The translations under genes and the position numbers were made by a program. Below the pieces are notes generated by a model. The model was given only the letters and a program-made list of their open reading frames with translations, did no database searches and was not told the DNA's origin. Of a stretch of DNA of 49,931 nucleotides, positions 3,884 to 23,427 are shown in pieces (position 1 is the stretch's first letter; the number at the start of each line of letters is the position of its first letter). This DNA is from Fibrobacterota bacterium (GTDB lineage: Bacteria; Fibrobacterota; Fibrobacteria; UBA11236), in the NCBI GenBank assembly GCA_043753995.1, contig JAYUVP010000149.1, positions 1-49,931 of the forward strand. The letters run 5' to 3'.

Positions 3884-4147
3884 GCGCATAGGTAAATCAA
3901 AACCTCCTTCCAATCAAAATCCGGCTACTTCACCTTTGCAATCAAACGAATGCGTGCCGCCGCATTCCGGAAACAACACGCCCCCCACCAAAGACCCGCA
4001 GCATTAGCTCTTGCCCGGGGATGTATTAGCTCTAGCCATGCCCTGGGGGAAGGCGAGGCCGACAAGGGCGACGGGGTAAGGCGGGCCGAGCCTGGGGGGC
4101 GTTTGGGAAGCCCGGAACGAGCGGCTGAGCCCCCCGGAAATCCAGGG
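3884..4147 (-). mobile_element. Non-autonomous IS91-like mini-element (oriIS-like A2 at 3884-3923 plus C module at 4041-4147)
   Basis: GCGCATAGGTAAATCAAAACCTCCTTCCAATCAAAA at the left end. The C module is 100/107 identical to 23321-23427. Confidence 0.65.
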
Positions 4148-4157
4148 TACTTGCCCT

Positions 4158-5429: not shown

Positions 5430-5737
5430 ACCAACCCCTTATCTGATCGTCTTTTTCCGCAAAGTCATGATAAGCCCACGAAGGATAATTCGCTTGATGA
5501 TGGACGATAATTTCTTCCTTGGAACTTTCTAGCGGCCTGGGTTTCGCCATCTTTGGCGGACCTTTTGGCCTCCGTTGCCTATGCATTTCCATCCCCATTG
5601 ACATTTTCCTGCACCGAATTATCCACCCCATTCCATCAACTGCTTTATGTGACAAGAGAAGAAATTCATTTGGGCGAAACGTTTCGAAAGGCATTGCCCG
5701 AGTGGAGATACGAAGGGTTATGGATATCACATATTGG

Positions 5738-5872
5738 ATTGGAGGTCGCGTCATTGACCGGCCCAGTGAAATGCCACACACCTTGAAACCCGTTGGTTGT
5801 CTTGAAAACTGCCGCTCCATTGGACCTGTCAGGAACCGCGCCCTTGAGTGGGTGCCACACCATTTGAACGAT
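5738..5872 (-). pseudogene. Internal fragment of a DUF2341/LamG-type protein
   Basis: IVQMVWH..SNGAAVFKTTNGFQGVWHF..NDATSN resembles the DUF2341-LamG junction motif; no plausible full ORF around it. Confidence 0.5.
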
Positions 5873-5997
5873 GTTCGCGCCTGCAGGGGATGTATTGAGG
5901 TGAATACAATGGCCGCCATGCGTGAGATAAGAGCAAGTGGACCGGGATATTCGTTCTTGATTCCTATTTTTCGACTGCGCCGGAACCCCTTGGAGTA

Positions 5998-6819
5998 TTG
6001 ATGCGAAAATCCACGCTTGCTTACCTACTCTGCGGTTGCATACTCACCGCCGCCGCTGCGGTATGCGCCGGTGGCTGGTTCATGGTCTATAACTTCAAGG
6101 GAAGCGTCGGCAATTATCCTATCACCTTGAGCTTCCAGATGCTCAAAGTGGATTCAACTTGTAAAACCACTCACGGCGCGCCTTGCCACAATCTGACGGG
6201 CCTGTATAAATACGATAAAGTGAATGAGATGATTCCGTTGCGTGGCGACCTCATCTGGAAAACCGGACAGGTTGTTTTGGAAGAGATGAAACCGGGCAGC
6301 TCCCTCCGGTCGGCGGCATCGCCGAAGTCCCTCCAGGCTCGTTTCGAGTTCCAGTTCAGCAAAGGCTCCACCCAAGGGACCTGGAAATCCCTGAAAGGTC
6401 CCCGGGCCTATCCGCTCCGTCTTGATTTCGTTTCTTCCTTGATCGACACTTTCAATACCTTCCGTGACAGCACGGAAAAATCAGACGGCGTTGTGGATAT
6501 TCCGATGCATGTCACCGCAGCCAATCAATATTTCGTAGGCGTATACGATTACGATTATCTGAAGTACCAGGAGCGCGGCGCGGTGTTGACGTCCATCAAG
6601 GTGCTCGATAAAAAAACCAATCGTCTCATCCAAAGGATCGAAATGCCTCTGGAAGGACATGCCTCGATGGGGGCTAACGTGACCACTATTTACGAAAACG
6701 TTGGCCTGGAAAAGGGCGTTTTGTGGGTTTCCTTCGGCAGCGGGGGGAGGAGCGATGGCGCGCTAGAGTATCGGTGGAATAAGCGGAAATCCCGGTATGT
6801 CATGATGCCTGAGGAGTAA
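5998..6819 (+). CDS. Hypothetical secreted protein
   Basis: 273-aa ORF with N-terminal hydrophobic signal; FKGSVGNYPITL...GLYKYDK..IPLRG motif. Confidence 0.7.
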   Translation: MMRKSTLAYLLCGCILTAAAAVCAGGWFMVYNFKGSVGNYPITLSFQMLKVDSTCKTTHGAPCHNLTGLYKYDKVNEMIPLRGDLIWKTGQVVLEEMKPGSSLRSAASPKSLQARFEFQFSKGSTQGTWKSLKGPRAYPLRLDFVSSLIDTFNTFRDSTEKSDGVVDIPMHVTAANQYFVGVYDYDYLKYQERGAVLTSIKVLDKKTNRLIQRIEMPLEGHASMGANVTTIYENVGLEKGVLWVSFGSGGRSDGALEYRWNKRKSRYVMMPEE

Positions 6820-6960
6820 GGGGGTTGGAGCATCTCAAGAATCTTATCAATCGAGGCGACTCGATAACTGAATCCAAAAGATCGGTGCGATTTCGTGTGG
6901 GCCGCCAAAGCCGAGTCCTTGCTTCTTCCCTGAAGGGTCCCCTTGCTAGATTGATGACGC

Positions 6961-7863
6961 ATGGGAAACCCGTCCCTCGCTCCATGGTTTCGGATTTTGA
7001 TCGCGCTCCCCGCCGCGGCGTCCATGCTCTGCGCCTGCGCCGGCTCCTTCCTCTTCGAGGACATGCACGCCGAATACCAACCGACCGAAATCCCCGCCGT
7101 GTTCGCATCCGGGAAGCGCGGTTGGATCCTTTCGGGATTCATCACCGGCAACAACCAGGATCCCATCCATTTCCTGCGCGAGGATTCGGTGTGGTGGGAA
7201 TCCGCGGATAGCTCCAGATTCTTCCTCGACTCCGGCGCATCCTTCTCCCAACGTACTCCCGGGGTGCTGCACGGGGACTACCGCATCGAACGCAGCCGAA
7301 TCCAGGTAGGCGGCGCCCTCGCCTACCAGCGCCGGCATTGGTTCTGCGGGGTTTCGCTGGCCCAAGGCTCCTCCCTTGGTTTGGGTCAGGTGGGAGCCTT
7401 CGGGGGCTGGTCCCAGCCCATGGGCAATTGGGTCCCGCTCATCGCCGGAGGTGGGTACGCGAATCGGGTGCGGACCACGGGGAAGGTTTGGCATGAAATA
7501 GCAACCTTTCCCATTCCCATTGGGGAAAACGGCACGCCCGATGGCTATTTCCCGGATACCGCCCAGGGGCACAGAACCCATTTTTCCATGCCCGTGCGGA
7601 TAGGTGTCCTTTATAGGGTGGGTCGGGACTTCGCGCCTTATTTCACCCTCGCGGGCAACTCAGTGTCCGTGTGGCCGGGAGAGGAGGATGACCCCGGCCG
7701 ATACGAGGTATTGGATTCCGATATTGCCCTGGGTGCGAGATATTCTCCCTATCCGAACATGACATTGGGAGTGGAGCTGGCCTTGACGACGGTGGACGGA
7801 CCGAACTCCTATTCGGCAGATGCGGCCAAGGTGGCGCTTACGGTGGAACGGGCCTGGCGGTGA
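6961..7863 (+). CDS. Hypothetical lipoprotein / outer-membrane beta-barrel-like protein
   Basis: 300-aa ORF, signal ending in LCAC, alternating amphipathic strands, aromatic residue near the C-terminus. Confidence 0.65.
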   Translation: MGNPSLAPWFRILIALPAAASMLCACAGSFLFEDMHAEYQPTEIPAVFASGKRGWILSGFITGNNQDPIHFLREDSVWWESADSSRFFLDSGASFSQRTPGVLHGDYRIERSRIQVGGALAYQRRHWFCGVSLAQGSSLGLGQVGAFGGWSQPMGNWVPLIAGGGYANRVRTTGKVWHEIATFPIPIGENGTPDGYFPDTAQGHRTHFSMPVRIGVLYRVGRDFAPYFTLAGNSVSVWPGEEDDPGRYEVLDSDIALGARYSPYPNMTLGVELALTTVDGPNSYSADAAKVALTVERAWR

Positions 7864-7869
7864 ACCACC

Positions 7870-7958
7870 GAGCCTAGGTAAATCAAAACCCCTTTCCTAT
7901 CAAAAACCGCCTTCTCCCACCACAATCCATTCACCCCAAGGCACAACCCAAGCTTCCC
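7870..7958 (-). repeat. oriIS-like end motif, copy A3 with extension
   Basis: GAGCCTAGGTAAATCAAAACCCCTTTCCTATCAAAAACCGCCTTCTC, starting 6 bp after the 7863 stop. Confidence 0.8.
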
Positions 7959-7966
7959 ATGTTTTA

Positions 7967-7989
7967 GAAACGCTCCTGTGGAGCGTTTC
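7967..7989. repeat. REP-like perfect hairpin
   Basis: GAAACGCTCC-TGT-GGAGCGTTTC, 10-bp perfect stem, preceded by TTA (TTAG vs GTAG of REPs). Confidence 0.45.
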
Positions 7990-8174
7990 CGAGGTAGCGT
8001 CCCGGTTAACCCAATCAGTCCGGATACTCCGGCCGGGCGACCGCAAAAGGAGTTTTTAGACCGGCTCAAATAACCGCTTTGGGTTCCTTTGCAGCAATTC
8101 CGTCACCACCGGCTATTTGAAGCCAGCACACCCGAATGAAAAACTATGATATACTCAAACAGGAACAATCCTTT

Positions 8175-10745
8175 ATGAAATATCCGAAATTCCAAATAAC
8201 TCTAATTTTAATAATGCTCTCCGGAGTATTCTTTATTGTTAGCGCACAAATGGAGAACTACACTTTCAGTCTTACCCAATCAACACCGCAGTATACATTC
8301 TGGACCACAACTCCAAGCATCCGTGTCTTTAAGGATAGTCCGGTACCTAAAATGACTGGTTCGTCAATAAATGTGTTTTGTGCAAAAAATGAAACGGAAC
8401 CTTTTGTTGTAGTTGTTAAACCTGCTCAAAGCGGGACTGTGACTATTTCAGTCGGAAATTTCGGGTCGGGTATCGAGGCAGAACTCAATCAGGTTAAATA
8501 TGTACCGATCACGACTCCATCGGATAACCTAGGCAAAACGGGTTTTTATCCCGATCCGGTGATGCCGATTGCGAATAACGCTTCTGTAACAGTCACCGCT
8601 AATGAAAATACTGAATATTGGGTGACACTTTTCGTTTCCTCCACGGCTGTAGCTGGAGATTACACGAGTTCGATAACTCTTGGAGGCGTCACGATTCCAG
8701 TTAAGCTACACGTATTTAATTTTGTAATGCCGTCCGAGCTCCATGTAGAATCACAGATGAACTTATCCTATGAAACCATATTATCCAAATATGGCGTAAC
8801 TGGAACGTCAACGGATTACTGGAACTATGTCGAAAAAATCAAACTCTTTTTCATCCGTCGTCGCTTAACACCAACGAATCCAACATGGCCAGGTGGTCTG
8901 ACCAGCAGTGGCGGAGAGAGTTTTGTCAATTACGATTGCAATGGGACAATATCTGATCCGTATGGAATCTGGGGTTTTGAAGGACCCGCCGAAAAGTATA
9001 TAAAGGGAACAGGATTCAATAGCGGAACAGGTTTTCCTTCCTTCCAGGCAATTTCCTTCCGCAATAACGATGCGTCCGCTGATCAACGACCCGGCACTTT
9101 TTGTACAAATACCTTGAGCCAATCGGACTGGTATTCAGGAAATAATCCTCAGTCTGCTTATAATCTAAAATGGTTTTCATACTTGAAATCGTTACAGGAT
9201 TATTTAAACGGTCAAAGCCTTCTAGGTAAAGCATACTACTATCTGGCAAATGAACCCCAGGATCAAGCTGGCTATGATGCCGTTGCGTGGTACACACAAG
9301 AGATTAAAAAAAACGCACCGCTTTTAAAACTGATGGTCTCAGAGGAACCCCGTTCTGAAATTTATAGTCATCCAACCTATCGTGGCGCAAAGGTTGATAT
9401 CTGGTTGCCTGTTCTGCAAAATTATAACCCGTCAATTTCATGGGAACGGGAAAAAAGCAATGGAGAGAAAACATGGATATACTTTCTCCACAGTACACGT
9501 CCTCCTTATTTCAATCCGGTAACGGTGGATCACCCTGGAATTGAGAGTAAGCTTACCGGTTGGTTTCTATGGAAATATCGTATCAGAGGTATCGCCTATT
9601 ACGCCCTCAATGACTGGAGTCAAAATCCCTGGACCAACCCGCGTGCTAATAATCACAATGGTGATCTTTTTATGCTTTATCCACCGTCCGAGAGTAACAC
9701 TGCAATTGCGTTCGGTGCAACAGATCATCGCCTTGTATCATCGCAGCGATTAGAGTTGATGAGGGATGGGCTGGAGGATTTTGAATACCTTTATTTACTT
9801 AACAATGGCAAACTTCCAGAAGTTCTGCAAGAGAACGCTTCTGATTCGCAGGTTAACAAGATTATCTCTGGTCTTACAAGTTACTCCCGCGATGATGAAT
9901 TCATGTACAATATTCGCCGCCTGATGGGATTGAAACTCGGTGGTGAGCTTTTGACAATACCAAATATTACTCCGCAAGGAACTCATCCGCGGGCTGCAGG
10001 AGCTCCTGGAAATTATTTTATAAATTTTCAGGACCCTAACGGCGCGCCCCTCGTCAATCCGCTTGTTGTCGATGGGAATACGTATATGAAAATAGGTTGG
10101 AATAATTACAACGATTCACTGGGGCATGGATGGTTTGGCGATATGGCTAATGTTAAATACTCGTATTTGAGCACCGGACCCAATGAACTCCAGAAAAGCG
10201 TTATCTACGATGACTGGGGACGACTGAAAACTTTCGAATTTGCGTGTCCCAATGGTGAATACGATGTCACGATATCAGTAGGATGGGCTGGCAAGGGCTA
10301 TCAACACCAAAAAGTCGCGGTTGAGGGCGTAAATTTTGTCAATGATGAAGCAACAACAGTAGCTGCACCTTACCTTATCAGAAGCAAGCCAGTAACTATT
10401 TCTGATCAGAAACTCACCATGGAGATGGGCATTTTTGATGAGTATACAATGTTAAATTATATGACTATTATAGCGAGGGGTACACCGGTTCGGCATATAC
10501 AAAAAACAACTTACAGCAAAACAGTTACCGTGAGCAGTTCTCACAATGGCATCTCGCTTCTTTGTAACAATCCGGAGATCTTGTCTGCTTCAATATTTAA
10601 CAGTACTGGAAAGCTGTTGTATAATTTCCCTATCAAATATAAGATGGGGGTTATAGGTAGAGCACAGGTCCAAAGTGGTTTGTATTTTGTTAGAGTTGAC
10701 AATAAGTATGGTACGTTACATCTTGAAAAGGTGATTGTGAGATGA
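8175..10745 (+). CDS. Secreted DUF4091/GH123-like glycoside hydrolase with T9SS-like C-terminal domain
   Basis: AKNETEPF, YPDP, YLANEP, GIAYY, NGDLFMLYP, SQRLELMRDGLEDFEYL; C-terminal SGLYFVRV...KVIVR. ORF opens at 8136; ATG 8175 fits the signal peptide. Visibly AT-rich. Confidence 0.8.
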   Translation: MKYPKFQITLILIMLSGVFFIVSAQMENYTFSLTQSTPQYTFWTTTPSIRVFKDSPVPKMTGSSINVFCAKNETEPFVVVVKPAQSGTVTISVGNFGSGIEAELNQVKYVPITTPSDNLGKTGFYPDPVMPIANNASVTVTANENTEYWVTLFVSSTAVAGDYTSSITLGGVTIPVKLHVFNFVMPSELHVESQMNLSYETILSKYGVTGTSTDYWNYVEKIKLFFIRRRLTPTNPTWPGGLTSSGGESFVNYDCNGTISDPYGIWGFEGPAEKYIKGTGFNSGTGFPSFQAISFRNNDASADQRPGTFCTNTLSQSDWYSGNNPQSAYNLKWFSYLKSLQDYLNGQSLLGKAYYYLANEPQDQAGYDAVAWYTQEIKKNAPLLKLMVSEEPRSEIYSHPTYRGAKVDIWLPVLQNYNPSISWEREKSNGEKTWIYFLHSTRPPYFNPVTVDHPGIESKLTGWFLWKYRIRGIAYYALNDWSQNPWTNPRANNHNGDLFMLYPPSESNTAIAFGATDHRLVSSQRLELMRDGLEDFEYLYLLNNGKLPEVLQENASDSQVNKIISGLTSYSRDDEFMYNIRRLMGLKLGGELLTIPNITPQGTHPRAAGAPGNYFINFQDPNGAPLVNPLVVDGNTYMKIGWNNYNDSLGHGWFGDMANVKYSYLSTGPNELQKSVIYDDWGRLKTFEFACPNGEYDVTISVGWAGKGYQHQKVAVEGVNFVNDEATTVAAPYLIRSKPVTISDQKLTMEMGIFDEYTMLNYMTIIARGTPVRHIQKTTYSKTVTVSSSHNGISLLCNNPEILSASIFNSTGKLLYNFPIKYKMGVIGRAQVQSGLYFVRVDNKYGTLHLEKVIVR

Positions 10746-10749
10746 TGAT

Positions 10750-10875
10750 TTTTGAATGCTGTAGCTCCAAGTCTATCCACTTTTGCGTCAGCGCCTTGCA
10801 TTTCTTGAATGTCGCCGTTTCCTGACGGAACCGCTTTAACGCCTCTGGCCTTACGTATTCAGTTTTGCTTTTCAC
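10750..10875 (-). pseudogene. C-terminal fragment of DUF6788-like (IS-associated) protein
   Basis: KSKTEYVRPE...FKKCKALTQKWIDLELQHS resembles the DUF6788 C-terminal half; the CGK/HGPY N-terminal half is absent. Confidence 0.4.
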
Positions 10876-10913
10876 CCTAGGAGACTTCGCTTCGGTTTTC
10901 CGCTTCAGCGAGT

Positions 10914-11660
10914 TTCAGAATTCTCTGGAACTCACGGGTAGGATTCCATTGGAACTTGGCACGGTGGTGACGGGCTTTTTGGTTTGGAATGGCGACAAAA
11001 TCCTCAAAGGCAAACTTCAAAATAGGGTCAAGGGCAAGCGCAAATACGAGGAAATGATCAGCCGCAGTGGGGAGACCACCCAGCCTCCCCACGCCCCGCA
11101 TTTTTGGAGCAAGGCGCCAGCCAATTGTGTGACCCCAGCCTTTTTCCTGTCGTCCTGAATCCATTTCGCAAAATACGCCTGCGCTACATCATTCCCACGC
11201 GATTCATGGATGGCGAATATCGCTGCTCATTTCATCTTTCATCCCCCACAAGACATGCTCCGCCTTGCTGGAGACTTTACCGGGGCGAAACGATTGCTAA
11301 GCAGACAATCGAAAAACCAAAGACCATTGTCATGGAGGATGGGACGCAATTCGTTCGCACTTTCGGCAATACGCTGTTTTATCCAATGACCAAGACCATG
11401 CCCGTCGATCTTGGGGCCGCCTGGGGATTCGTCGATACTAAATACGCTCTACCTTCCCGACTATTCATCACCCCGCCTCCTTCTCTGAATGGCTTAAAAA
11501 GCCGCGCGTCGATTAACACCCTTACCGGCGACAAGATCCGGGAAGCCTGGCTCGGGAGCGGCCGCGAATTCGCAATCCCCATCGACAATCTGGCGCGCGG
11601 ACGGTATGTATTCGAGTTGAAGGGAGCGGGGTTTAGAAGAACGGAGCCATTCGATCTTCC
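10914..11660 (+). pseudogene. Truncated, internally deleted paralog of the VIT-like protein at 38182-40503
   Basis: NSLELTGRIPLELGTVVTGFLVWNGDKILKGKL vs NTLEINGDFTLPIEATVVGLLLWDGDKILEAKL; FPVVLNPFRKIRLRYIIP vs YPVKANATRRFRLRYHLP. Frameshifted; ends in T9SS-like LARGRYVFELK. Confidence 0.65.
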
Positions 11661-11763
11661 TCAACTTCGAGGATCCGTCGATCGCGCCCAAACGCAAAGC
11701 CCCGCTCACAATGAGGATGCTTTGGCTTTGAATGTCTCGGCTGGAACGCCGGGAGCCGAATCC

Positions 11764-11882
11764 GGAAAAACCACACTCTGCCATATACCCGGGGCGATCT
11801 CTCCAAGGCGGCCACGCTTTCAGTCAAGAATAACACGGTTGCCTTGCACTTGGCGCATGGGTACAGCCGTGGACCTTGCTAA
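11764..11882 (+). pseudogene. Frameshifted 3' fragment carrying a 'CHIPPG...HLAHG..GPC' small domain
   Basis: GKTTLCHIPG, then frameshifted GDLSKAATLSVKNNTVALHLAHGYSRGPC-stop. Confidence 0.55.
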
Positions 11883-12049
11883 ACGAAGTAACGTCGACAC
11901 TCCGGCCAATCCGTCCACTCCCCTGCATTTTCCTGTTCCGGATTTTCCGCCGTCTGCGGCTTGGGAATGATCGGCTTCACGCAGGAGGATCACGGGTGAT
12001 TGCTTTTGTGCGAGACCGGCGGGGGTGCGCCGGGGGAGTCATGTGCGGG

Positions 12050-13009
12050 TTACGGGGTGTACTGGGTATGTGTGAATTCGCCTGTACCGCCCGCCTCATT
12101 GTCGATGATGATGAATTGCGCGGGATTCGTCCTTAGGACCTCGTATGGATAGACCTTGGAGGATGTCGTCAAGGTGCTCGAATTTCCGTTCGACATGCCT
12201 GTCATGCCGCCGATCTTGAACACGTATACTCTCGGATCCCCCACGGCTGTCGTACGCGAAGCGCGGAAATCGTTGGCCCCTGCGCTCTTATAGATCATCC
12301 CGCCGAGGGTGCGGATCGAGGGGGTTATCACATAATCGCAATTCGGACAGGTCGCCTGGATCATATCCAGGGACAGGCTGGTAATCCGCGTGGAATTCGC
12401 GTTGGTCAAGGGGGCCACAATCCACATGAAATACCCGTTTTCGCCCGCCTTGAAGGTGTAGTTGATATAGGATGACAGGTTTCCCTGAACGGCATCGTCG
12501 TTCCAGGCGAGGATCTTCACCGGCACCTGCGCCGTCTTGGGAATTTCGCCATTAGCGATGAACCCGGCATGGGTGAATTGGATCAGAAAGGCGACGGGAT
12601 CGGAAATCCCCTTATTCACCTCGTTGATGGATCTGGCCCGGAAAAAGATTTGATCGCCTTCGCTGGCATGGAAAATCCCCTTGGAGAGCCGCAGGCATTG
12701 CCCGGAGACACTAAGGACGTTGGACGCAGCCGCTTTTTGCAAAGCGCCGACTTCATCTGAAACCGGGGAAGGTACGGTTTCCCGGATCGGAGCCGATGCC
12801 TCGAATCCGAATTTTGCATCCAGCGCAGCCAGACCGGCCTCGAGCGCTTCGTCGGGACCCGCTTTCAGCTTCTGAACTTCCAGAGCATACTCCTGTTCGG
12901 AAGCCGTCTCCGGGGGATGGGTTGATTCCTGTTGGCATCCCAATAGGGCTAGCGCCGCAGTGGCAATGGGAAGTAAACTGAATATGGGAAAACGGGATTG
13001 ACGGTTCAT
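12050..13009 (-). CDS. Hypothetical lipoprotein
   Basis: Lipobox LLGC; LQKAAA linker; 319 aa. Confidence 0.75.
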   Translation of the reverse strand: MNRQSRFPIFSLLPIATAALALLGCQQESTHPPETASEQEYALEVQKLKAGPDEALEAGLAALDAKFGFEASAPIRETVPSPVSDEVGALQKAAASNVLSVSGQCLRLSKGIFHASEGDQIFFRARSINEVNKGISDPVAFLIQFTHAGFIANGEIPKTAQVPVKILAWNDDAVQGNLSSYINYTFKAGENGYFMWIVAPLTNANSTRITSLSLDMIQATCPNCDYVITPSIRTLGGMIYKSAGANDFRASRTTAVGDPRVYVFKIGGMTGMSNGNSSTLTTSSKVYPYEVLRTNPAQFIIIDNEAGGTGEFTHTQYTP

Positions 13010-13113
13010 CGGGAAGCCTTTCGATTGAACTGGATGTATTTAGATGCGCGGCTATCCCGGATTGTTTCAAATCATTCGAACAGCTGCCTTTTGTGATAAG
13101 AATCGAAATTCAT

Positions 13114-13220
13114 CCGGGGGAAGGCGAGGCCGACAAGTGCGACGCGGAGGAAGTCGGGCCGAGCCTGGGGGGCGTTTGGGAAGCCCGGAACAAGTGGCTG
13201 AGCCCCCCGGAAAACCAGGG
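13114..13220. repeat. GC-rich C module (copy C2)
   Basis: ccgggggaaggcgaggccgacaag...cctggggggcgtttgggaagcccggaac...gccccccggaaaaccaggg, homologous to 23321-23427. Confidence 0.9.
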
Positions 13221-13490
13221 TTTTTGCCCTGGTGCTGACGGCCCCCGGGATGTTCCGGCGGGTCGCCAATTGGCTTGTCTAGGGGGTCCTATTCCTGTTT
13301 CTTAGCATCGGCTCCACGGTTTCATTCACGTCGTTGGAAGAGCGCATTTTGGCGCTGTGGAGCGCGATAACGCGTTCAAGCAGAGCATAGCACAGAAGCC
13401 CGAGGCCAAGACTTTTGCTTTTTTCGACGGCCCGCCTTTCGCCACCGGTTGGCCACATTATGGGCATTTGCTGGCTGGGACCATCCAGGA
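13221..13490 (+). pseudogene. ileS: Partial duplicate of ileS leader and first ~65 codons (includes HIGH motif)
   Basis: Aligns to ~23500-23772; ATG changed to CTG, 1-nt deletion; encodes FFDGPPFATGWPHYGHLLAGTI. Confidence 0.92.
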
Positions 13491-13522
13491 GCAACCGGAA
13501 CATCCAGGCCCGGCCGGGCCGG

Positions 13523-14026
13523 TCAGGCGACCGGGGCTTCCCAATCGTCCATGGCCATAATGCCGCCATCGACCCAGGTCCATTCGATCTTCTTGTAGGA
13601 GAAGTGGATTTCCTCCATGTCCTTTACCTGGGAGAGCGCCGGGTTTTTATTGTTGAGCATTAGGAAATTGATGGCCGCAATATTGGCATTGGTCAACTTG
13701 ACTGTATAGTGCTGCTTCTCGGCGCCCATGCCGGTGGCGGCGGCGAGCTGGGGGGTCCAGAACTGGACCGAAAGCTCGGGGATGTTCTCGTTGTTGCAGA
13801 GGGCGTTGTAAAGCAAGGGCGAGGACTTGTCCAGCTGCTTGGTGATGACGAAGGGCTTGTGCTGGCGCTTGCCGGTGGGCAGGCCGGAGGCCGTATCCCG
13901 GGGCGAGACGATGGTATGGTTGACGGCGATGACCTCGATCCAGCCTTCGCGGCCCTTCTGCGTCACAGAACCGAGGATCTGGCCCTGCTTCTGGCCTTTC
14001 AGTCTGAGATATGCATTCAATGCCAT
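13523..14026 (-). CDS. hcp: Type VI secretion tube protein Hcp (TssD), orphan
   Basis: MALNAYLRLKGQKQG...SPRDTASGLPTGKRQHKPFVITKQLDKSSPLLY...YKKIEWTW...DDW; GGAGG RBS before ATG 14026. Confidence 0.93.
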   Translation of the reverse strand: MALNAYLRLKGQKQGQILGSVTQKGREGWIEVIAVNHTIVSPRDTASGLPTGKRQHKPFVITKQLDKSSPLLYNALCNNENIPELSVQFWTPQLAAATGMGAEKQHYTVKLTNANIAAINFLMLNNKNPALSQVKDMEEIHFSYKKIEWTWVDGGIMAMDDWEAPVA

Positions 14027-14044
14027 GGCTTCCCCTCCACCTGG

Positions 14045-14060
14045 GAGCATAGGTAAATCA
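14045..14060 (-). repeat. Truncated oriIS-like end motif, copy A4
   Basis: GAGCATAGGTAAATCA is an exact 16-nt match to the motif end, 18 bp upstream of the hcp start. Confidence 0.65.
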
Positions 14061-14351
14061 TCTTTGCATTTTCATCACCCTGCAAAGCGGCAAGTTTATC
14101 CGCACCGATTCGAGAATCGACTTATTCTGCACTTAGTTGCCAAAATCACAATGACTATCCTCTCCTTCTCGATAGTCGATCCTGCACTTTGTCACACTTG
14201 GTAAAATCATCTTTGCAAATTTAAGGTTCTATGGAGTAAACGAGATACGTGGTTCAGAGCCAAAAAGATGTTTGATAGGGTGCTGTAATGACGGGGTAGG
14301 TGGCTTCGAATTACAATGGGTGGGCTGGTGGCCAGCGGGACCGCGAAGGGC

Positions 14352-14657
14352 TTAGAACAAGGGCTTGATGGCGCGGCGGAACTCATCGGCGACCCTTGCG
14401 CCGAGGCCTCTGGCGTCCATCAGATTCACGGTTTCACTACCTCCCGTATCGTCAAAGATCTTGCCGACCAGCTGTCCGTTCACCCTGAGTGTGATGGATT
14501 TGATCTGGATCGCCTTGGAGCTGGGCTCGCAGACCATGTGCAGATAGGTTTCGCTGGTCATGCTGGAAGGGAATATCCAGTCATCGCTTCCGAAGCTCCG
14601 TTTCCAACCAAGGTCCTCAAACTGCTTAATGCTGGAAATGTTGACGTTAAAGAACAT
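14352..14657 (-). CDS. Small hypothetical protein (101 aa)
   Basis: GGAGG RBS before ATG 14657 (MFFNVNISS...). Confidence 0.6.
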   Translation of the reverse strand: MFFNVNISSIKQFEDLGWKRSFGSDDWIFPSSMTSETYLHMVCEPSSKAIQIKSITLRVNGQLVGKIFDDTGGSETVNLMDARGLGARVADEFRRAIKPLF

Positions 14658-14715
14658 GAAAACCTCCCATGCACGTCCCCAGAGGCGGCCACCAAAGGGA
14701 AAGAATAATTTTTTA

Positions 14716-14763
14716 GAGAATAGGCAAATCAAAACACCTTACCCATCAAAAAACGCCTTCTCT
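14716..14763 (-). repeat. oriIS-like end motif, copy A5
   Basis: GAGAATAGGCAAATCAAAACACCTTACCCATCAAAAAACGCCTTCTCT. Confidence 0.8.
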
Positions 14764-14815
14764 CGACACAGCGCAGACACACCACATCCTCGCCAAAGGT
14801 CCGCCGCAAAAGTTC

Positions 14816-14863
14816 ATGCCAGGCGAAGGCACGGAGTTCCGTATCTACCTGCCCCTGGTCTGA
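14816..14863 (+). pseudogene. 3' scrap of a sensor histidine kinase (HATPase_c C-terminal motif)
   Basis: Encodes PGEGTEFRIYLPLV-stop, the typical kinase C-terminal G-x-G-T-x-F-x-I-x-L-P motif. Confidence 0.6.
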
Positions 14864-14934
14864 ACCCGGACCCCGAATAAACCTAATTTTCGGGTTACCG
14901 GGCTCTTCTCTTACCGGTCCAAAGGCAGGTACCC

Positions 14935-16491
14935 ATGGACAAGCCGCACCTCCCCTGCATCCGGACCCTTGCGTCAGCCTTCCTCCTCACTGGCCTGTTG
15001 GCCGCCTGCCAATCCGGAGGCGGCGCCGATGCCCCTCCCGACAAGGATTTCCCGGTCAACAAGAACTTGTCCGCGCTATTCACGGCCCAGGGCCTGCCCG
15101 CCGAGGTCGCGGACTTCTTCGCGGCGGCTAAGCTCGATACCGAACGCGTCGACGCGCGCACCTTCAAATACGTCCAGACCTGGCCCAACGGCGCCACCCG
15201 CACCCTCATTCTGAAGGTCACTCCCGATCAGCGGCATACCCCCACGGCCGCGGAGAGCGCCTCGGTGGCCAAGGGCGGCCCCGCTGTCTACGCCGTCCAC
15301 CATGAACGGAAGAAGGAAGGCGACGGCACGGTCAAGATCGACCTCACCTATATCGTCCCCACCGCCTCCCTGCCGGCGGAACTGAAAGTTGCTCTGGCCT
15401 CCGTCTCGCCGCCATCGAAAGCCCTGCTCCGACTCGCCGCGCCATTGGTCGGCGCCGCCGCCCCTTCCACCGCCGCCGAGGTCGACGGCGCGGGCATCGC
15501 CTGGGGCGAGGTGGCCCGCACCGGGGCCGACGTGGGCATCGGCTCCCTCATCGAAGCGGCTGGCAACCGCGGCATCCCCACCGGACCCCTTTCCGGCATC
15601 TACTCCATATCCTCGGCGGCATCGGCTATCGGCGGGGCCATGCAATTGTCCCAGCAGACGTCGAGTTGGTTCCTGGAATTGGACGCCTTGGAGAAATGCG
15701 CCAAGAATCCCACCAACCCTGTCGCGAAAAGCGATCCGAACTACATCTCCATGGCCTCAAGCAAGGTGGCCTCCGCGCGCGCCGAGCTACAGGAGGTCGG
15801 CTCCGCGCGCTTCCTCAACCAAATGAACGAGACCGCCGCGGGCATCACCCCCCAGACCTCCTACATGTCCATCCTGCTCAAGGCCGGCTTCGCCTCGAGC
15901 GACGCCGCCCTGTCGGACTTCAGCGAGAATACCGTGATGCGCGAGGCGCGCCTGGCCGTGGTCTCCTGCGACTCGACCGCGCCCAAGCTGGAGGGTAACG
16001 TGGAGGTGACCTGGACCTGCGACGAGTCCTACCCATCCGGCACCGTCAACACCGTGGTCACCATCAAGTCCTCGGTCGGGTGGGATTGGGATTCGGACTC
16101 CCGCCAATTCTGGGCCAAGGGCGAAACCACCTACAAGCGGGTCCGGACCTCGATAGGCGCCAAGACCTGCATCCTCAAGGAGGACTGGAAGGGCAGCCTG
16201 TACAGGCAGGGTGTCCTCACTATGTTCTTCGAACCGGCCGCCGTGCAGGTTCTGGGATACGACTACCTCGCCGCGGGCGAGATCAGAACCGACGTGGCCT
16301 TCACCGAATCCTGCGAGGGGACTTCGGGCACCATGCCGGAAGTCATCCAGTGGCTGCCGGACGTCCAAGGCCTAAGCGCCGGAGGGGTCATCGCCGGGGA
16401 GAAGACCAAGCCCACTTGCATCGGCATCAATGGGCCGGCCGGCAGCGAGATCACCAAGTACCGCTTCGCCGTGCCGGACGCGCCGAAGTAG
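14935..16491 (+). CDS. Hypothetical lipoprotein, GC-rich
   Basis: Lipobox LAAC; 518 aa; strong G/C third-position bias unlike neighbours. Confidence 0.8.
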   Translation: MDKPHLPCIRTLASAFLLTGLLAACQSGGGADAPPDKDFPVNKNLSALFTAQGLPAEVADFFAAAKLDTERVDARTFKYVQTWPNGATRTLILKVTPDQRHTPTAAESASVAKGGPAVYAVHHERKKEGDGTVKIDLTYIVPTASLPAELKVALASVSPPSKALLRLAAPLVGAAAPSTAAEVDGAGIAWGEVARTGADVGIGSLIEAAGNRGIPTGPLSGIYSISSAASAIGGAMQLSQQTSSWFLELDALEKCAKNPTNPVAKSDPNYISMASSKVASARAELQEVGSARFLNQMNETAAGITPQTSYMSILLKAGFASSDAALSDFSENTVMREARLAVVSCDSTAPKLEGNVEVTWTCDESYPSGTVNTVVTIKSSVGWDWDSDSRQFWAKGETTYKRVRTSIGAKTCILKEDWKGSLYRQGVLTMFFEPAAVQVLGYDYLAAGEIRTDVAFTESCEGTSGTMPEVIQWLPDVQGLSAGGVIAGEKTKPTCIGINGPAGSEITKYRFAVPDAPK

Positions 16492-16517
16492 GCGCTCCCT
16501 GGCGCCGTTCTCCGGCG

Positions 16518-17179
16518 GGGCATGGGTCAATCAAAAGCCACTTGCTATCAGATTAGAATGGAATGGGAAACCAAATGAATAGAACGGGGCGGACTATTGC
16601 TGTAACGGTTTTCTGTGCTCTTTCTCAAGTCAATGGATTCGTCCCCACTTACATAGACATTACATCCATTCAATATTCATTCTCGAATAGCCAGAATGCG
16701 CAAAATGTGGCTTTGAATGCATCGATTTATGAAATGAAAAATTTTGGCGCCGTAGGCTCACGCATGGGTCGGCCTGGGTATTGTGGGCATAGAATTTTCT
16801 CACTATGCACACCCTCATGGCCGTGAATAGGAGCTGTCGGCTTATCTGGCATTGGGTTCGATTTTATTCTTGCTTTCAAAACAATAAGAGTCAACTTTAC
16901 GGCCTTTGGGTACTCCTAAGACGCACCTCCCTGCTTCAGGGCATCGACTGTCACTTTAAATCGGTATTGCCCCGATTCCATGCGAGAGAATACCGCAAGT
17001 GAGGAATTGCAGTAACTCCTGTGTGACGTGCTTGGGAAGACAATTGCCGGTTTCGGAGTCGTCCCATATTCGCTCGAAGAGGGTCAAGCGTCAACAAGGG
17101 CGACAGGGGAAGACGGGCCGAGCCTTGGGGGCGTTTGGGAAGCCCGGAACCAGTGGCTGAGCCCACCGTAAAACCAGGG
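16518..17179 (-). mobile_element. Degenerate IS91-like mini-element: oriIS-like A6 (16518-16552), transposase remnant (16973-17057), C module (17085-17179)
   Basis: A6 matches copy consensus at 27/35; same module order as 23115-23427; ~400 bp of unrelated gene scraps between A6 and the remnant. Confidence 0.6.
16973..17057 (-). pseudogene. IS91-family transposase N-terminal remnant
   Basis: SETGNCLPKHVTQELLQFLTCGILSHGI; 74/85 nt identical to 23164-23248. Confidence 0.7.
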
Positions 17180-17332
17180 CAAGCGGCCTCCGCTACCCAC
17201 CTGTTCAAGCGCCTGCGAATGCAGGGAATCAACCTGGTTATTCGTGATGCCAAAAAAATAGTGTGCGACATTTTTAGTAGAGAAGCTCTCTAATCCTAGA
17301 CGGAAATAAATCCGCAACTCGAAAGATGAAGC

Positions 17333-18112
17333 ATGTTAAGGAAATTCTTAATCGCCTCCATACCGACCATCGCCTTGATTGGTTGCCTGAATGAATCCGT
17401 TGAAGCCCCGGTTCAGCATCATTCCCAAGCTGGACAACCTGAATCAGCCATCGAACTGAGGACCTTGGAAACACCTGTAAAAATCAAGGTGGGCGCGAAA
17501 TCGGTGACGGTCTATCGATCGCCGGATGGCTTTGATGTGATTGAATCCACCCAACCGAAAGGGGAAGCGTCTTTGCTTACCCCTCAAATGAGCGGAAAAA
17601 CTTGGAAGGAAATCGCGGAAACCATTGCACCCGGAAGCGAGGTGGCACCGAGCCATGCAAATGAAATCTATCTGGGAGAAACGGGTATTCCCTCCCCTGT
17701 CGAAATGGCGCCCATGGAGGGACAGTTCAATCCATCCCTGACAACGGATATTCTAGGGAAGAAAGCCGCAGATGCGGCCTGGTTCCAACAAAACTTTTGC
17801 ACCGTAGGCTTAGCCTTCAGTTGGTGTCTTCTGAATCGATGGGGAGGCAATGATTGGGGACAGACGAATGCCAAATATTCGAAAGCACATATCATTATGA
17901 ATTCGGGTTCTCAGGTCGTATTCTCCATCAAATCCGGAGGGAAGCGCACATTGACGACCACCATTTTGAACGACAATATCGTCCATTGGTTTCAAACCTT
18001 CAGCAGTCGGGTGGATGGTATTTACAGATTGGAATCACACCGTTATGACATCACCAACTCCGATGTCGCGAATAACAACTGGCATTGGTCCTGTTACGCG
18101 ACCACTTGGTGA
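17333..18112 (+). CDS. Hypothetical lipoprotein
   Basis: Lipobox LIGC; LGKKAA linker before a Cys/Trp-containing C-terminal domain. Confidence 0.75.
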   Translation: MLRKFLIASIPTIALIGCLNESVEAPVQHHSQAGQPESAIELRTLETPVKIKVGAKSVTVYRSPDGFDVIESTQPKGEASLLTPQMSGKTWKEIAETIAPGSEVAPSHANEIYLGETGIPSPVEMAPMEGQFNPSLTTDILGKKAADAAWFQQNFCTVGLAFSWCLLNRWGGNDWGQTNAKYSKAHIIMNSGSQVVFSIKSGGKRTLTTTILNDNIVHWFQTFSSRVDGIYRLESHRYDITNSDVANNNWHWSCYATTW

Positions 18113-18319
18113 AATCATAGGAGGACCCCTATGAATCAAAAGCAATAGTGGTCCGAAAAAGCTGTCCCTCCGGCGGGTCGCAGATTGCATACTCTAAAAT
18201 AGGCCATGGCCTTGGCTCCGAACCCCTCAAAAACTCCTGAGGGATCTCCTCTTTAGGCTCCCTCTTTGTTTACTATCACGCGGGGTTGTGCTTGGATTGT
18301 AGATGGGGAGCCAAAGAAA

Positions 18320-18778
18320 ATGGACATAGCAGATCGAATAGCAATCATTCAAACCTTGCTTTCCACGCAACGGAATAAGCAATCCGAATACGAACGCGAA
18401 TCCGCCGCTCTGGATCAAGCGGCGGCCCTGGAAACCAAAAGCAGCGCTGGGGACAAATATGAAACCGGCCGCGAGATGATCGCGCAAAGCCGCAACATCA
18501 TCCAGCGCAATTTGTCGGAGGCCGTTGCCAACGGCGATGCCTTGCAGCGCATGGCAGTGGCGGCTTTACAAGACCGAATCAGTTTCGGTACCCTGGTGGA
18601 GACGAGCCTGGGATGGTATCTCCTGGGCGTCGGCCTTGGCGAGTTGGAATACCATGGAATCCGCATCGGCACGGCATCGCTGGCCAGTCCACTGGGTGCG
18701 GCCTTGAAAGGCAAGCGCGCAGGCGACAAAATTCCCTGGAAAGGTGGGACCTTGGAGATTTTTGCCTTAAGGCATTAG
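18320..18778 (+). CDS. GreA/GreB-related protein (ETKSSAGDKYETGR subfamily)
   Basis: ETKSSAGDKYETGREM, ISFGTLVET, SLASPLGAALKGKRAGD; GGGGAG RBS before ATG 18320. Confidence 0.8.
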   Translation: MDIADRIAIIQTLLSTQRNKQSEYERESAALDQAAALETKSSAGDKYETGREMIAQSRNIIQRNLSEAVANGDALQRMAVAALQDRISFGTLVETSLGWYLLGVGLGELEYHGIRIGTASLASPLGAALKGKRAGDKIPWKGGTLEIFALRH

Positions 18779-18900
18779 CTCCCGGCCTTTGTTCCACTTT
18801 GCAAAGCATATCCCTGCCTTGTTTATCGTTCGGCGCGACGCGGCGGGCATAGGCCTGACCGGGAATCCATGGTTGATGTTACGGTGATCACTTATTCAGT

Positions 18901-19131
18901 CAGATAACCTATTCCCTCCTCTGACTCCAGGGTTTTTGCCCTGGTGGTGACTGGCCCCCGGGATGTTGCGTTGGGTCGCCGATTGGCTTGTCTAGGTGGT
19001 CTTATCCATGTTTCGTAGCATCGACTCCTCGGTTACTTTCACGGCTCTCGAAGAGCGCATTTTGGCCATCACCATTGCAAGGAGCGCGACGATGCGTTCA
19101 AGCAGAGCATAGCCCGGAAGCCCAAGGCCAA
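18901..19131 (+). pseudogene. ileS: Second partial duplicate of ileS promoter/leader and first ~38 codons
   Basis: Aligns to 23465-23691; ATG intact at 19008 (MFRSIDSSVTFTALEERILA), then a 14-for-6-nt replacement frameshifts it. Confidence 0.92.
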
Positions 19132-19141
19132 AGGAAACCGT

Positions 19142-20440
19142 TCATTCCAAGAACAGGGCTTGGGTATAGGTGCTGATATTGGATTTCTCGCCCTCGGGAG
19201 TGTTCTCGGGGAGGGGCGACTCAAATTCGATGCGGGCGTAGCGCATACCTTTATAATCGGACACGGGAGTTTTTCCGTCAAACGCGCGTGCGAGGTCCTG
19301 GGTCGGCAGCCACAGCAAGAGCTGATACTCCTCGGTGCCCTGGGACATCGACTTCTTGCCCACGAGGTAGATTTCACGCGGCAGCATGTCTCCGTTGAAC
19401 GGATCTGCCGGAGGCTGCAAAGCACCGAAGGGATAGCGAGCTGGGTCGAAGCGGTAGATGAGCGGCTTGTGCAAAACCACCTCCCCACTAGTCCTGTCTA
19501 CCGTGAAGAGCTTGACGCAGATTTTTTCCGTGAACTTTACATAGGGCCCCATGTAAAGGGTGGCCGCGACCAGGATGCCCTGCTTCCCACCGCGCAGCGA
19601 AGGCTTGTAACGGTAGGACCAACCGGAATCGGGATGGTAATGCATGAATAATGGGTAATAACTCGCGATATCGGTCGAGTCTCCGTTCGGCCAGAAATAG
19701 TGAAGGAGCGGGTTCATGAGGGAATGGGATAAGTTGACGCCTACCGCTAGGTGGAAAACCTGGGCGGGTGTCGCCGTCTGGTGAACTGACACAACCTGGT
19801 TGGCGACCAGGCTCGAGTTGTATCCGAAATATTCCAACTCGGAAAAATCGTCCACGTAGCCGTTTTTATCTTCGTCGACGCCATTCCCCACGCTCGTCAT
19901 CGGGACGCGGAAAAACGTTTCAGAGCCGGATGGGAAAAAGTCCCGTCCTCGCCTCAAGGTATAGTCGGCGCCCCTGCCATCATGGTATTCTGCCACCAAG
20001 GAATCCTCATTGGAAAAATTCTGTGCAAGGATGAATTCCAGGGCGATGATTGGACCCGACTCCACGGTGAAGTGGCGGCCCCACTCCTTGGAATCATTTT
20101 CCACCATCAAGGTTTCCTGGAAGGGATGAAAAACCTCCAGCGAGTCGTAAGCCCCCCAGTCCCCCATCAGGTCAATGAACTCCTTCGTGTTCAAGGCGCG
20201 ATGATCGGAAAGGGAAAACTCGCGCACGGGGGAACGGTACTGGCGGCAGCCCCTGAATCCAATGCTGTCCCCGTAACCGAAGGCATACTCTACGCAACGA
20301 TTACGGATGATGCGGAGCATCTTCACGTCGGGTGCGGCTGTGGGATTTCCGGTCCCAGAGGAGTTTTCACATCCGCAAAACGGCACGGACACGGTTGCTA
20401 GGAGGAAAAGCAGATTGCGGAGGCGCGGCATGACTGACAT
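19142..20440 (-). CDS. Hypothetical lipoprotein
   Basis: ORF 19142..20647; likely start 20440 giving a signal peptide ending in FCGC. Confidence 0.7.
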   Translation of the reverse strand: MSVMPRLRNLLFLLATVSVPFCGCENSSGTGNPTAAPDVKMLRIIRNRCVEYAFGYGDSIGFRGCRQYRSPVREFSLSDHRALNTKEFIDLMGDWGAYDSLEVFHPFQETLMVENDSKEWGRHFTVESGPIIALEFILAQNFSNEDSLVAEYHDGRGADYTLRRGRDFFPSGSETFFRVPMTSVGNGVDEDKNGYVDDFSELEYFGYNSSLVANQVVSVHQTATPAQVFHLAVGVNLSHSLMNPLLHYFWPNGDSTDIASYYPLFMHYHPDSGWSYRYKPSLRGGKQGILVAATLYMGPYVKFTEKICVKLFTVDRTSGEVVLHKPLIYRFDPARYPFGALQPPADPFNGDMLPREIYLVGKKSMSQGTEEYQLLLWLPTQDLARAFDGKTPVSDYKGMRYARIEFESPLPENTPEGEKSNISTYTQALFLE

Positions 20441-20789
20441 GAAAATACCAAGCTTATTTTGAGAGATACCCCGCTCCGATACTAAAGTCGACGCGGTAAA
20501 AAATACGCGGCAATCAGCAGCCGACGGTATCTCGCATTGACCCAAAAAAAATCTCCTTAGGCTCAATTCCAATTCGAAAAACCAGGCGCCCGAGGCGGTG
20601 TTCAAGGAGAAGTAGAGGCCTCCCGAAGCGCGATTTTGGCGGCTCAAGAATGCGACGGCGTCGATTATAGCGCCGAAGTCCCCGACAGCGCAATTTAACC
20701 TCCACTTCGGGGGGGAAGCTTTGGTGCCGAAAGCGTGACGGAACAGACTATTTTAGGCTCGCGCATTTCATTTTTATTGGAGGGTTCAA

Positions 20790-23102: not shown

Positions 23103-23114
23103 TGCCAATGACAG

Positions 23115-23427
23115 GAGCGTAGGCAAATCAAAACCCCTTTCCCATCAAAACAATGCATTTGCGCGATGCCATGGGCGAGTATGCCGCAGGTCAGGAATTT
23201 CAGTAACGCCTGTGTGACGTACTTGGGAAGGCAATTGCCGGTTTCGGAAGAATGGTGGATAAAATCACGATTCAAAGGAACAGGTTGCTGTGTCTTACCG
23301 TGCACCACTTCGCAGCAATACCCTGGGGGAAGGCGAGGCCGACAAGAGCCAGTGAGTAAGGCGGGCCGAGCCTGGGGGGCGTTTGGGAAGCCCGGAACGA
23401 GTGGCTGAGCCCCCCGGAAAACCAGGG
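23115..23427 (-). mobile_element. ileS-proximal internally deleted IS91-like element (oriIS-like A7 23115-23150, transposase remnant, C module 23321-23427)
   Basis: GAGCGTAGGCAAATCAAAACCCCTTTCCCATCAAAA joined directly to the transposase remnant; C module bounded by CCCTGG...CCAGGG. Confidence 0.7.
23151..23250 (-). pseudogene. IS91-family transposase zinc-binding-domain remnant
   Basis: LPKYVTQALLKFLTCGILAHGIAQMHC resembles the IS91/IS801/IS1294 motif LP.FV..EF..YL.CG.L.HGF.R..C; truncated at the oriIS-like motif. Confidence 0.7.

Follow-up and report, generated by a model that had tools for sequence, protein, structure and literature searches.

Diverged, truncated 5′ ends of ileS upstream of the intact gene in an uncultured Fibrobacterota bacterium: possible traces of recombination without an integrase

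In an uncultured sediment bacterium of the phylum Fibrobacterota, truncated copies of the 5′ end of the essential synthetase gene ileS lie upstream of the intact gene. Our analysis concerns contig C149 (JAYUVP010000149.1), taken whole as a window of 49,931 nucleotides from a metagenome-assembled genome of 5.2 Mb, 356 contigs and 97% completeness. We tentatively favour the explanation that front ends of ileS have been displaced by recombination that needs no integrase, possibly by way of circles formed in rolling-circle transposition. The longer stump in the window, ileS′ copy 1, would then derive from an allele that once worked. The genome holds a single full ileS (tblastn with the whole protein against the genome), and repeat finding and alignment resolve the DNA 5′ of it into a series of blocks: D3, D7, D1, a CCAGGGT/spacer/CCAGGGT segment and D6 (Table 1). 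Partial repeats of the series D3-D7-D1-D6-ileS recur upstream within the window, all on the + strand.

We envisage that DNA came between the upstream part and the body of ileS, leaving each stump, and that a fresh upstream region with fresh first codons kept the essential gene whole. The joining would have been the work not of a site-specific integrase but of homologous recombination between the resident copy and circular or linear DNA sharing D1, D6 and the ileS 5′ end. One-ended rolling-circle transposition may have produced such DNA, the element involved being a member of the IS91 family that sat head-on before ileS and overran into it for different distances. Such an element is a plausible source of the circles. 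Repeated single-crossover insertion-duplication at D1-D6-ileS would leave truncated units, each cut at a different place, with unrelated genes between them. The lineage of copy 1 would have resided for long in a working gene, then lost its start codon and reading frame, and then decayed. The diverged allele may have originated in another strain.

Changes in the longer stump are mostly silent

The strongest argument comes from a codon-by-codon comparison of copy 1 (13295-13490) with ileS 23576-23772, which covers 65 codons. Fourteen codons differ silently, nine by replacement and one by a 1-nt deletion; at the nucleotide level, the 25 substitutions divide into 16 silent and nine replacing ones. 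Codons 40-64 (TFAFFDGPPFATG(L/W)PHYGHLLAGTI) differ at nine places, eight of them silent third-position changes and one a replacement (L53W), exactly as an earlier reading made from the sequence alone (the sequence-only reading) had it. That reading also mentioned further silent changes upstream. Six silent codons do lie among codons 1-39 of copy 1, accompanied by seven replacements that went unmentioned. The dN/dS comparison that it proposed gives a pairwise value of 0.13, with replacement sites 6% different and silent sites 36%. Both of the inactivating lesions it named are present as well: the start codon reads CTG in place of ATG (13295-13297), and one G is gone from the GGG run of codon 22 (~13359), which produces a premature TAG at 13388-13390. 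Homology to ileS stops at 13490, corresponding to 23772.

As a random control, the 25 changes were re-placed on bases of the same kind, which keeps the mutation spectrum and the higher third-position GC. Random placement yields a mean of 6.3 silent changes against 15-16 observed, and none of 20000 trials reached the observed number (15 by single-step counting). What this control rejects is no more than the neutrality of every change. It is fairer to take as null a copy dead from birth and a working gene accepting silent changes only, over equal times. Under this equal-branch null, 60% of changes should be replacements, yet nine of 25 are (P=0.014), and in codons 40-64 there is one replacement among nine changes (P=0.004). 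Local duplication followed by decay is thus moderately disfavoured as a model for copy 1 (P about 0.01-0.03). Copy 1 appears, with moderate support, to carry divergence accumulated under purifying selection, and because of this it is probably not just a decayed local duplicate. The evidence moderately favours a copy 1 that belonged to a working allele during most of its existence.

Polarisation of these changes points the same way. Among the species genomes compared there is none of the same genus, and the nearest ileS there has 70-80% DNA identity. The closest relative, locus L021 from a metagenome scan, has 87% protein identity, and its DNA is 80% identical to ileS and 75% to copy 1; copy 1 accordingly arose within the ileS lineage of the host's close kin, not in that of L021. 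Polarised with L021, the copy 1 branch carries 16 of the 25 changes (eight replacing, eight silent) and the ileS branch five (one replacing, four silent), with four silent changes ambiguous. The sequence-only reading had named as contrary to it a pattern in which the silent changes lie wholly on the lineage of the working gene, and this pattern is not seen. Overall, the copy 1 branch has changed faster (16 against 5, chi-square P=0.016), driven by replacements (eight against one). This replacement-driven rate reflects decay, and with eight of nine replacements on its branch copy 1 did decay at the end. Half of the changes on this branch are silent (8 of 16) against 26% expected under neutral decay (P=0.03), and adding the ambiguous silent sites lowers the probability below 0.002. 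By a rough hand estimate with wide error, the copy 1 lineage would have been a pseudogene for about one third of the separation and a working gene for about two thirds. The claim that copy 1 is no simple decay of a local duplicate therefore stands moderately, on the equal-branch and fragment-branch comparisons.

An antisense open reading frame (ORF) of 96 aa (13279-13569) runs over the stump and was considered as a cause of the silent pattern. Frame arithmetic rejects it, because the silent sites of ileS after the frameshift are its first codon positions. A long antisense ORF is also found over ileS itself.

The principal alternative is that copying was purely local, by one-ended transposition or by segmental duplication next to D1, and that the stumps were dead from birth. 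The silent excess would then stem from chance, or from a later event of ordinary homologous recombination in which a relative's allele replaced the working ileS, in whole or in its 5′ part. We regard this as somewhat unlikely but deserving of serious weight. The flanks of D1 are duplicated between loci elsewhere in the genome (C242/C98, C65/C322, C94/C129), so segmental copying around D1 is common; stump 2, the shorter stump in the window, fits plain decay; and the fragment-branch test is weak when taken alone (P 0.03-0.08). Further, the best-polarised silent changes on the fragment branch hit third positions that are conserved in all outgroups, as they would under relaxed constraint. Against purely local copying stand the equal-branch probabilities given above and the difference between replacement and silent sites. 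There is also no sign of an imported tract in ileS relative to L021, a test of low power. Third-position difference between ileS and L021 is 0.37 for codons 1-65 and 0.34-0.62 for other windows of 65 codons, and codons 1-65 are no outlier in a sliding third-position scan against L021 and L057, outgroups so distant that the scan has little power. With the same caveat, the recombination breakpoint near codon 65 that the sequence-only reading envisaged in ileS is not visible. As for a new N-terminal end, ileS and stump 1 (the unit holding copy 1) differ by replacement in nine of 65 codons, and either end could be the incoming one.

Stumps differ in length and share a lineage

The genome has at least three ileS stumps. 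The window contains two of them, and the third lies on contig C65, split in two. Their ends differ, corresponding to positions 23691, 23772 and 23794 (codons 39, 65 and 73). All ileS remnants found by blastn and tblastn come from the first 73 codons and sit beside D1 and D6, as would suit a process linked to the 5′ end of ileS. Stump 2 ends at the equivalent of 23691 and has an 8-nt insertion near 19067. A 1.72-kb stretch (17182-18900) occupies the place that a 36-nt leader spacer holds at ileS.

On C65, positions 35882-35945 match ileS codons 52-73, and ~200 nt further on a D1 is fused to a D6 tail and a CTG start. These pieces have derived states in common with copy 1: the CTG start, the word CCGGCGG in D6, GGG at both codon 57 and codon 62, and AAGT in the loop of D1. 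The C65 pieces and copy 1 are one lineage, and a single diverged allele lineage was therefore copied repeatedly. Because the C65 piece reaches codon 73, it may be only secondarily that copy 1 ends at codon 65. Hand counts of tiny numbers give four replacements and three silent changes in the overlap after the C65/copy 1 split, and two silent changes and the loss of the start codon before it; as far as such numbers go, they point in the expected direction. No overlap links contig C65 to C149.

The leader of copy 1 is shorter than that of ileS. The 7-mer CCAGGGT occurs once in copy 1 (13215) and twice, 72 bp apart, in the ileS leader (23422, 23494). Copy 1 lacks exactly the 72 bp between the two direct 7-mers, so the fusion described in the sequence-only reading, which gave about 72 bp, is accurate. 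The −10 box that it placed within the missing part finds no counterpart: a sigma-70 consensus scan of 23050-23620 returned no promoter-like sites, though the promoter type of the phylum may differ. The short leader is best read as a deletion between the two CCAGGGT 7-mers. The D6 of stump 1 differs from 23494-23575 by ten mismatches over 80 aligned positions and by two gaps. The long leader form is not peculiar to ileS, because contigs C322 and C65 carry D1 followed by part of the 72-bp spacer.

Gene order is colinear with L021 from the ileS start to 35.9 kb and breaks at the ileS start. Upstream of ileS there is no match to L021 of 60 bits or more except stump 1 itself, and GC per kb ranges from 0.43 to 0.67. 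The best matches to the 10 kb upstream of ileS in L021 are scattered over many host contigs, and no ancestral neighbour is identifiable among them.

A remnant of an IS91-family transposase faces D1 and ileS

New here is the identity of the block just upstream of D1 (23151-23248 and 16966-17057), which is an antisense remnant of an IS91-family transposase gene. Other genera of the family carry look-alikes of this block, D7, at loci that have no connection with ileS. The one in relative G019 falls within an opposite-strand gene for a 337-aa transposase with the Pfam domains Zn_Tnp_IS91 (E 9.8e-19) and Y2_Tnp (E 4.1e-5). Searches with blastx over 23050-23330 and 16900-17075 align the minus strand of 23151-23248 with residues 48-80 of the G019 transposase (73% identity, E 4e-16), and that of 16966-17057 with residues 42-74 (82% identity, E 1e-18). 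Weak similarity extends to about the start codon of the transposase, where D1 begins. Because tnpA is on the minus strand, its upstream (terIS) side faces D1 and ileS, and the gene pointed away from ileS. A fragment on C242, spanning residues 157-292, is likewise antisense just 5′ of a D1.

This geometry can be set beside what is described of the family. According to excerpts of PMC13181058, IS91-family replication proceeds from oriIS, downstream of the gene, to terIS upstream of tnpA; termination fails in 1-14% of events, whereupon adjacent DNA is carried along, and single- and double-stranded circles form. For IS801, an excerpt of PMC3189936 records 290, 1017 and 1431 nt of the same adjacent gene moved in three events, each moved piece ending in GAAC, GGAC, CAAG or CGAC. 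The three ileS stumps end at GGAC, CAAG and GGAC, all in the set of that excerpt. A random position in the first 255 nt of ileS qualifies with a frequency of 0.118, so that all three would do so with P=0.0016, a value calculated post hoc, and we take the match as a hint. The geometry, variable lengths and end words seem to fit one-ended transposition, and the incoming circle envisaged by the sequence-only reading is indirectly supported by the remnant.

Two candidate parts of such an element were set aside. D3 as the coding end of the transposase gene is rejected, as the similarity on C242 stops at residue 292, ~310 nt before D3, and D1 as the terIS of the relatives' insertion sequence is rejected since the sequences are not alike. 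The relatives' element ends upstream of tnpA in a GTCACATC/GATGTGAC palindrome. At L152/L153 (G019) and L146/L147 (G012), the repeated unit consists of the N-terminal part of the transposase and ~80 nt upstream, and it ends in that palindrome in the related genera; two G019 copies share only 514 nt. In those genera, then, the fragments present in multiple copies are those from the terIS side of the element.

D1 is a structured repeat found across the genome

The sequence-only reading took the block before ileS as its leader, a view that did not survive. The 94-nt core of this "leader", D1, lies on many contigs (blastn; 41 nhmmer matches), with about 45-54 copies in the genome. Covariance model R1 finds 54 matches at E up to 0.01, of which 50 are outside the window contig; 24 score at least 69.9 bits, and the remainder, roughly half, are a shorter variant of ~72 nt. 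Two hairpins are supported when 23 copies are aligned, one with 4-bp stems on both sides of a tandem G-A internal loop and with a variable tip, the other with a G6/C6 stem and an inner 4-bp stem. Compensating changes keep the stems, with 92.5% of cells paired against 30-54% in slid controls. The covariation score is 0.110 against 0.054 in shuffles, and none of 500 shuffles reaches it.

By a crude ORF map, D1 is intergenic in 38 of 46 copies. The 3′ neighbour of these 38 is a convergent gene in 24 cases and a co-oriented gene in 13, and the stop of the convergent gene is often only 4-60 nt from D1. Orientation is mostly uniform within a contig (C65 5/5, C149 4/4, C68 3/3). Since the copies are mostly intergenic and beside convergent gene ends, D1 is a genome-wide structured repeat placed like a REP or MITE, rather than a dedicated 5′ leader. 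It could act as RNA or as single-stranded DNA.

D1 is confined to this genome as far as our searches extend. R1 has no match in any of 60 further genomes, drawn from the family, order and class of the host; nhmmer does not find D1 in 80 metagenome ileS loci, and it has no match in viral contigs. On 18 metagenome loci, R1 gives nothing convincing, with four weak matches (E 0.036-0.3, at most 22.1 bits). Of 4227 Rfam covariance models, none reaches its gathering score anywhere in the window, and at E up to 10 on 23100-23600 the only hit is a 15-nt chance match (E 5.6). Scanning 185,579 species genomes for a D1 pattern turned up 13 single matches, all from unrelated high-GC bacteria. R1 picks up three of these at E up to 1 (17-22 bits, E 0.036-0.26), whereas full-length copies score at least 69.9 bits; all 13 were judged chance-like. 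The Y1 (RAYT-type) transposase PF01797 has no match in the genome.

The genome is rich in intergenic repeat families. D3 contains two ATCAAAA words 17 nt apart and has eight copies in the genome. Five are in the window, at 2744, 3886, 7872, 14718 and 23117 (~44 nt each, all + strand); of the others, two are on C242 and one on C224, so that all eight lie on the three contigs with IS91-family transposase fragments. Several D3 copies stand 200-460 nt before a + strand start codon or just past a gene end, and relative G019 has one 36-nt look-alike. Another small repeat lies at 8032-8118, of which the first 38 nt are found again, with 90-100% identity, on at least 11 other contigs (C94, C77, C78, C58, C284, C226, C310, C95, C161, C64 and C261).

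Evidence against the proposal and remaining alternatives

Several observations weigh against the displacement of ileS front ends by the route proposed here. Few numbers are available, and all tests of selection rest on 25 substitutions. A single-step count gives 7 of 16 silent changes on the fragment branch (P=0.076). L021 differs from ileS at 37% of third positions, so that silent-site polarisation is noisy, and at least five of six outgroups back only 4-5 changes on the fragment branch and one on the ileS branch. Stump 2 carries no signal of selection: its mismatches to ileS number 7 in 116 coding and 10 in 107 leader positions, and the comparison of coding with contiguous leader gives P=0.45. 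It reaches P=0.03 only when the more diverged D7 and D1 are added, and we base no claim on that value.

The transposase remnant is short and lacks both element ends; the assembly has no intact IS91-family transposase, and other fragments occur on C224 and C242 only. The terIS palindrome of the relatives has no counterpart in the window, where neither oriIS nor terIS is recognisable. The two remnants in the window share their left break (23155, 16964), which means that copying happened when the transposase gene was already broken. In a simple one-ended circle, the stump end would directly abut the oriIS side. In the window, a stump end is separated from the following remnant by 1.2-4 kb of other genes. 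Two stumps keep only three of the four tetranucleotide letters, and as the excerpts of the two papers give the IS801 tetranucleotide on opposite strands (GAAC, GTTC), our matches hold without regard to strand.

A foreign origin of copy 1 is conjectural, as no other strain was found: neither 80 metagenome loci nor the sequencing runs revealed a second one. Two runs contain the stretch and are probably its source, and three contain 4-7% of sampled words. Alignment of four runs to 5000-24900 gave no independent strain, as contigs break at repeats. The soil runs with a small share yielded only short pieces of Hcp (a type VI secretion tube protein gene) and ileS, 90-95% alike. A joint of 13448 to 23828 was set aside, as it occurs in a single contig with only 20 letters on the short side.

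An extended form of the proposal treats the region upstream of ileS as an integrase-free gene-capture site with exchange of 5′ ends between strains, using D1 as a handle. Circles from rolling-circle transposition would carry a stretch from D1 through D6 to the ileS 5′ end and undergo recombination with the resident copy, every time adding accessory genes, such as Hcp and secreted proteins, beside an essential gene, and the ileS promoter region and first codons would be exchanged between strains. D1 would be a working end or a recombination handle, not a leader RNA. We speculate along these lines while holding this extension to be improbable.

The stumps could instead be relics of a second complete ileS, paralogous or acquired, that once worked and has since decayed, which would account for divergence under purifying selection. 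We give this little credence, as tblastn with the 1087-aa protein finds only pieces of residues 1-66, ileS and distant class I synthetase paralogues, with blastn contributing no more than codons 52-73 on C65. No piece stands apart from D1 and D6, whereas random decay of a 3.3-kb gene should leave pieces from any part of it.

A shade less credible again are integrative elements of the kind that SXT/R391 in prfC or the dusA type represent, with the integrase since lost or lying off the contig. In favour of this, truncated 5′ ends do lie in a tandem series upstream of an intact gene. However, Phage_integrase PF00589 has seven matches in the genome and none on C149, C65 or C68, and no recombinase or transposase domain (Pfam) occurs in the 15 ORFs upstream of ileS (971-23102). 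The three ileS junctions differ where one att core would be expected, and the shared stretch is 230-380 nt long rather than a short core. A scan of the window for tRNA and tmRNA found no genes, and a literature search at the level of titles found nothing relevant on ileS as an integration site or on such repeats in Fibrobacter.

Least credible is an assembly artefact in which the contig jumps between organisms or loci at the D1 repeat: although the assembly is split into 356 contigs and contains many repeats, D1 interrupts public contigs of the probable source runs, and 13185-14163 is covered by depth with no bridging contig in the listed pieces, the lost start codon and frameshift show that the stump is not another organism's working gene, and contigs of runs X1 and X2, which are probably source samples and not independent, reproduce 14164-19032 and 19109-23387 without difference.

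Arrangement of the window

The coordinates of the repeated units and neighbouring features are collected in Table 1. The orphan upstream unit ends directly after CCAGGGTA, 9 nt short of the stop of a convergent gene. The 15 ORFs upstream of ileS include Hcp, a GH123-type glycosidase, a PETase-like hydrolase and many without a family match. The stop of the Hcp gene is 33 nt from the end of stump 1, and Hcp is the first gene of the DNA that separates this stump from the next leader copy. It is solitary, with no other secretion genes among the 23 kb upstream of ileS, and its nearest paralogue in the genome (contig C278) has 71% DNA identity. The two ORFs within 17182-18900 encode a predicted lipoprotein and a 170-aa product whose GreA/GreB C-terminal match is weak. 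Before the second ORF stands a partial D6-like stretch of its own (18169-18196). The contig ends (49880-49931) in long C runs (~10 and 9), a likely cause of the assembly break.

Table 1. Repeated units, stumps and neighbouring features in the window
Feature	Position	Strand	Basis or remark
Orphan upstream unit, D3 (3886-3929) and D1 (4044-4137)	3886-4149	+	
Stump 1 unit: D1, D6, ileS′ codons 1-65	13115-13490	+	
D1 copy before stump 1	13115-13210	+	covariance model R1, 99.1 bits
Leader tail D6 of stump 1	13215-13294	+	joined to D1 at single CCAGGGT (13215-13221)
ileS′ copy 1, codons 1-65	13295-13490	+	
Hcp gene (type VI secretion tube protein)	13523-14050	-	Pfam T6SS_HCP, E 9.7e-33
Stump 2 unit: D7 and D1; 1.72-kb stretch holding two ORFs; spacer tail, D6 and ileS′	16966-17181, then 18901-19131	+	
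D7 in stump 2 unit, IS91-family transposase gene remnant	16966-17057	-	blastx
D1 of stump 2 unit, 5′ part degenerate	17074-17169	+	covariance model R1, 69.9 bits
1.72-kb stretch, ORFs 17333-18112 and 18266-18778	17182-18900	+	
Stump 2: spacer tail, D6, ileS′ codons 1-39 (19008-19131)	18901-19131	+	
D3 at ileS, 31-44-nt repeat, first block upstream	23117-23160	+	
D7 at ileS, IS91-family transposase gene remnant	23151-23248	- (antisense to ileS)	blastx
D1 before working ileS	23324-23417	+	covariance model R1, 108.6 bits
CCAGGGT (23422), 72-bp spacer, CCAGGGT (23494), D6 tail up to start codon	23422-23575	+	
ileS, intact, 1087 aa	23576-26839	+	Pfam tRNA-synt_1, Anticodon_1, DUF5915

Significance and comparison with known systems

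If front ends of ileS have indeed been displaced in this manner, the front of an essential gene can be swapped repeatedly without a dedicated integrase. The indispensability of the gene would let only restoring events survive, and accessory DNA would be cheaply anchored beside a gene that cannot be lost. The stumps would be dated molecular fossils of such events. Gene capture of the IS91/ISCR kind, known from clinical Proteobacteria, would extend to an uncultured environmental lineage and to a housekeeping gene. D1, for its part, is a structured repeat without a match among described RNA families, and none of the 60 related genomes searched contains it.

D1 resembles REP/REPIN sequences and MITEs in being specific to a lineage, present in dozens of copies, intergenic and often just past a convergent stop, and in the upkeep of its stems by compensating changes. 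It departs from them in its two hairpins, tandem G-A internal loop and long conserved single-stranded parts, and in that no terminal inverted repeats or target duplications are seen. SXT/R391 elements (prfC) and dusA islands insert into the 5′ end of a gene and restore it, but they use a tyrosine recombinase and a fixed short att core. The ileS array has no integrase, its junctions vary, and its shared stretches run to hundreds of bases.

Campbell-type single-crossover insertion-duplication, as in laboratory plasmid integration, produces a 3′-truncated copy, the inserted DNA and a full copy. Each unit of the ileS series matches this expected product. In contrast to the textbook case, the series at ileS would be a natural succession of events at one essential gene.

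For ISCR elements, Toleman and colleagues reportedly proposed a model of gene capture. The likeness of the ileS array to IS91, IS801, IS1294 and ISCR elements lies in a transposase, here a remnant, that adjoins the copied DNA with its terIS side facing it. As in the excerpts on this family, one adjacent gene is copied in pieces of different length, which seem to end at family tetranucleotides; circular intermediates are a further feature described there. An excerpt of PMC6218425 places ISCR1 next to the 3′ conserved segment of class 1 integrons. A partly duplicated form of this segment has reportedly been described. Unlike in IS91 and ISCR systems, there is here no intact transposase and no recognisable oriIS or terIS, and other genes intervene where a stump end would be followed by a transposase remnant. 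What was copied is moreover an essential housekeeping gene that stays intact, in an uncultured host. One-ended capture of the IS91/ISCR kind, in which the adjoining segment is partly duplicated, nevertheless appears to be the closest known mechanism, with part of its defining features found at ileS.

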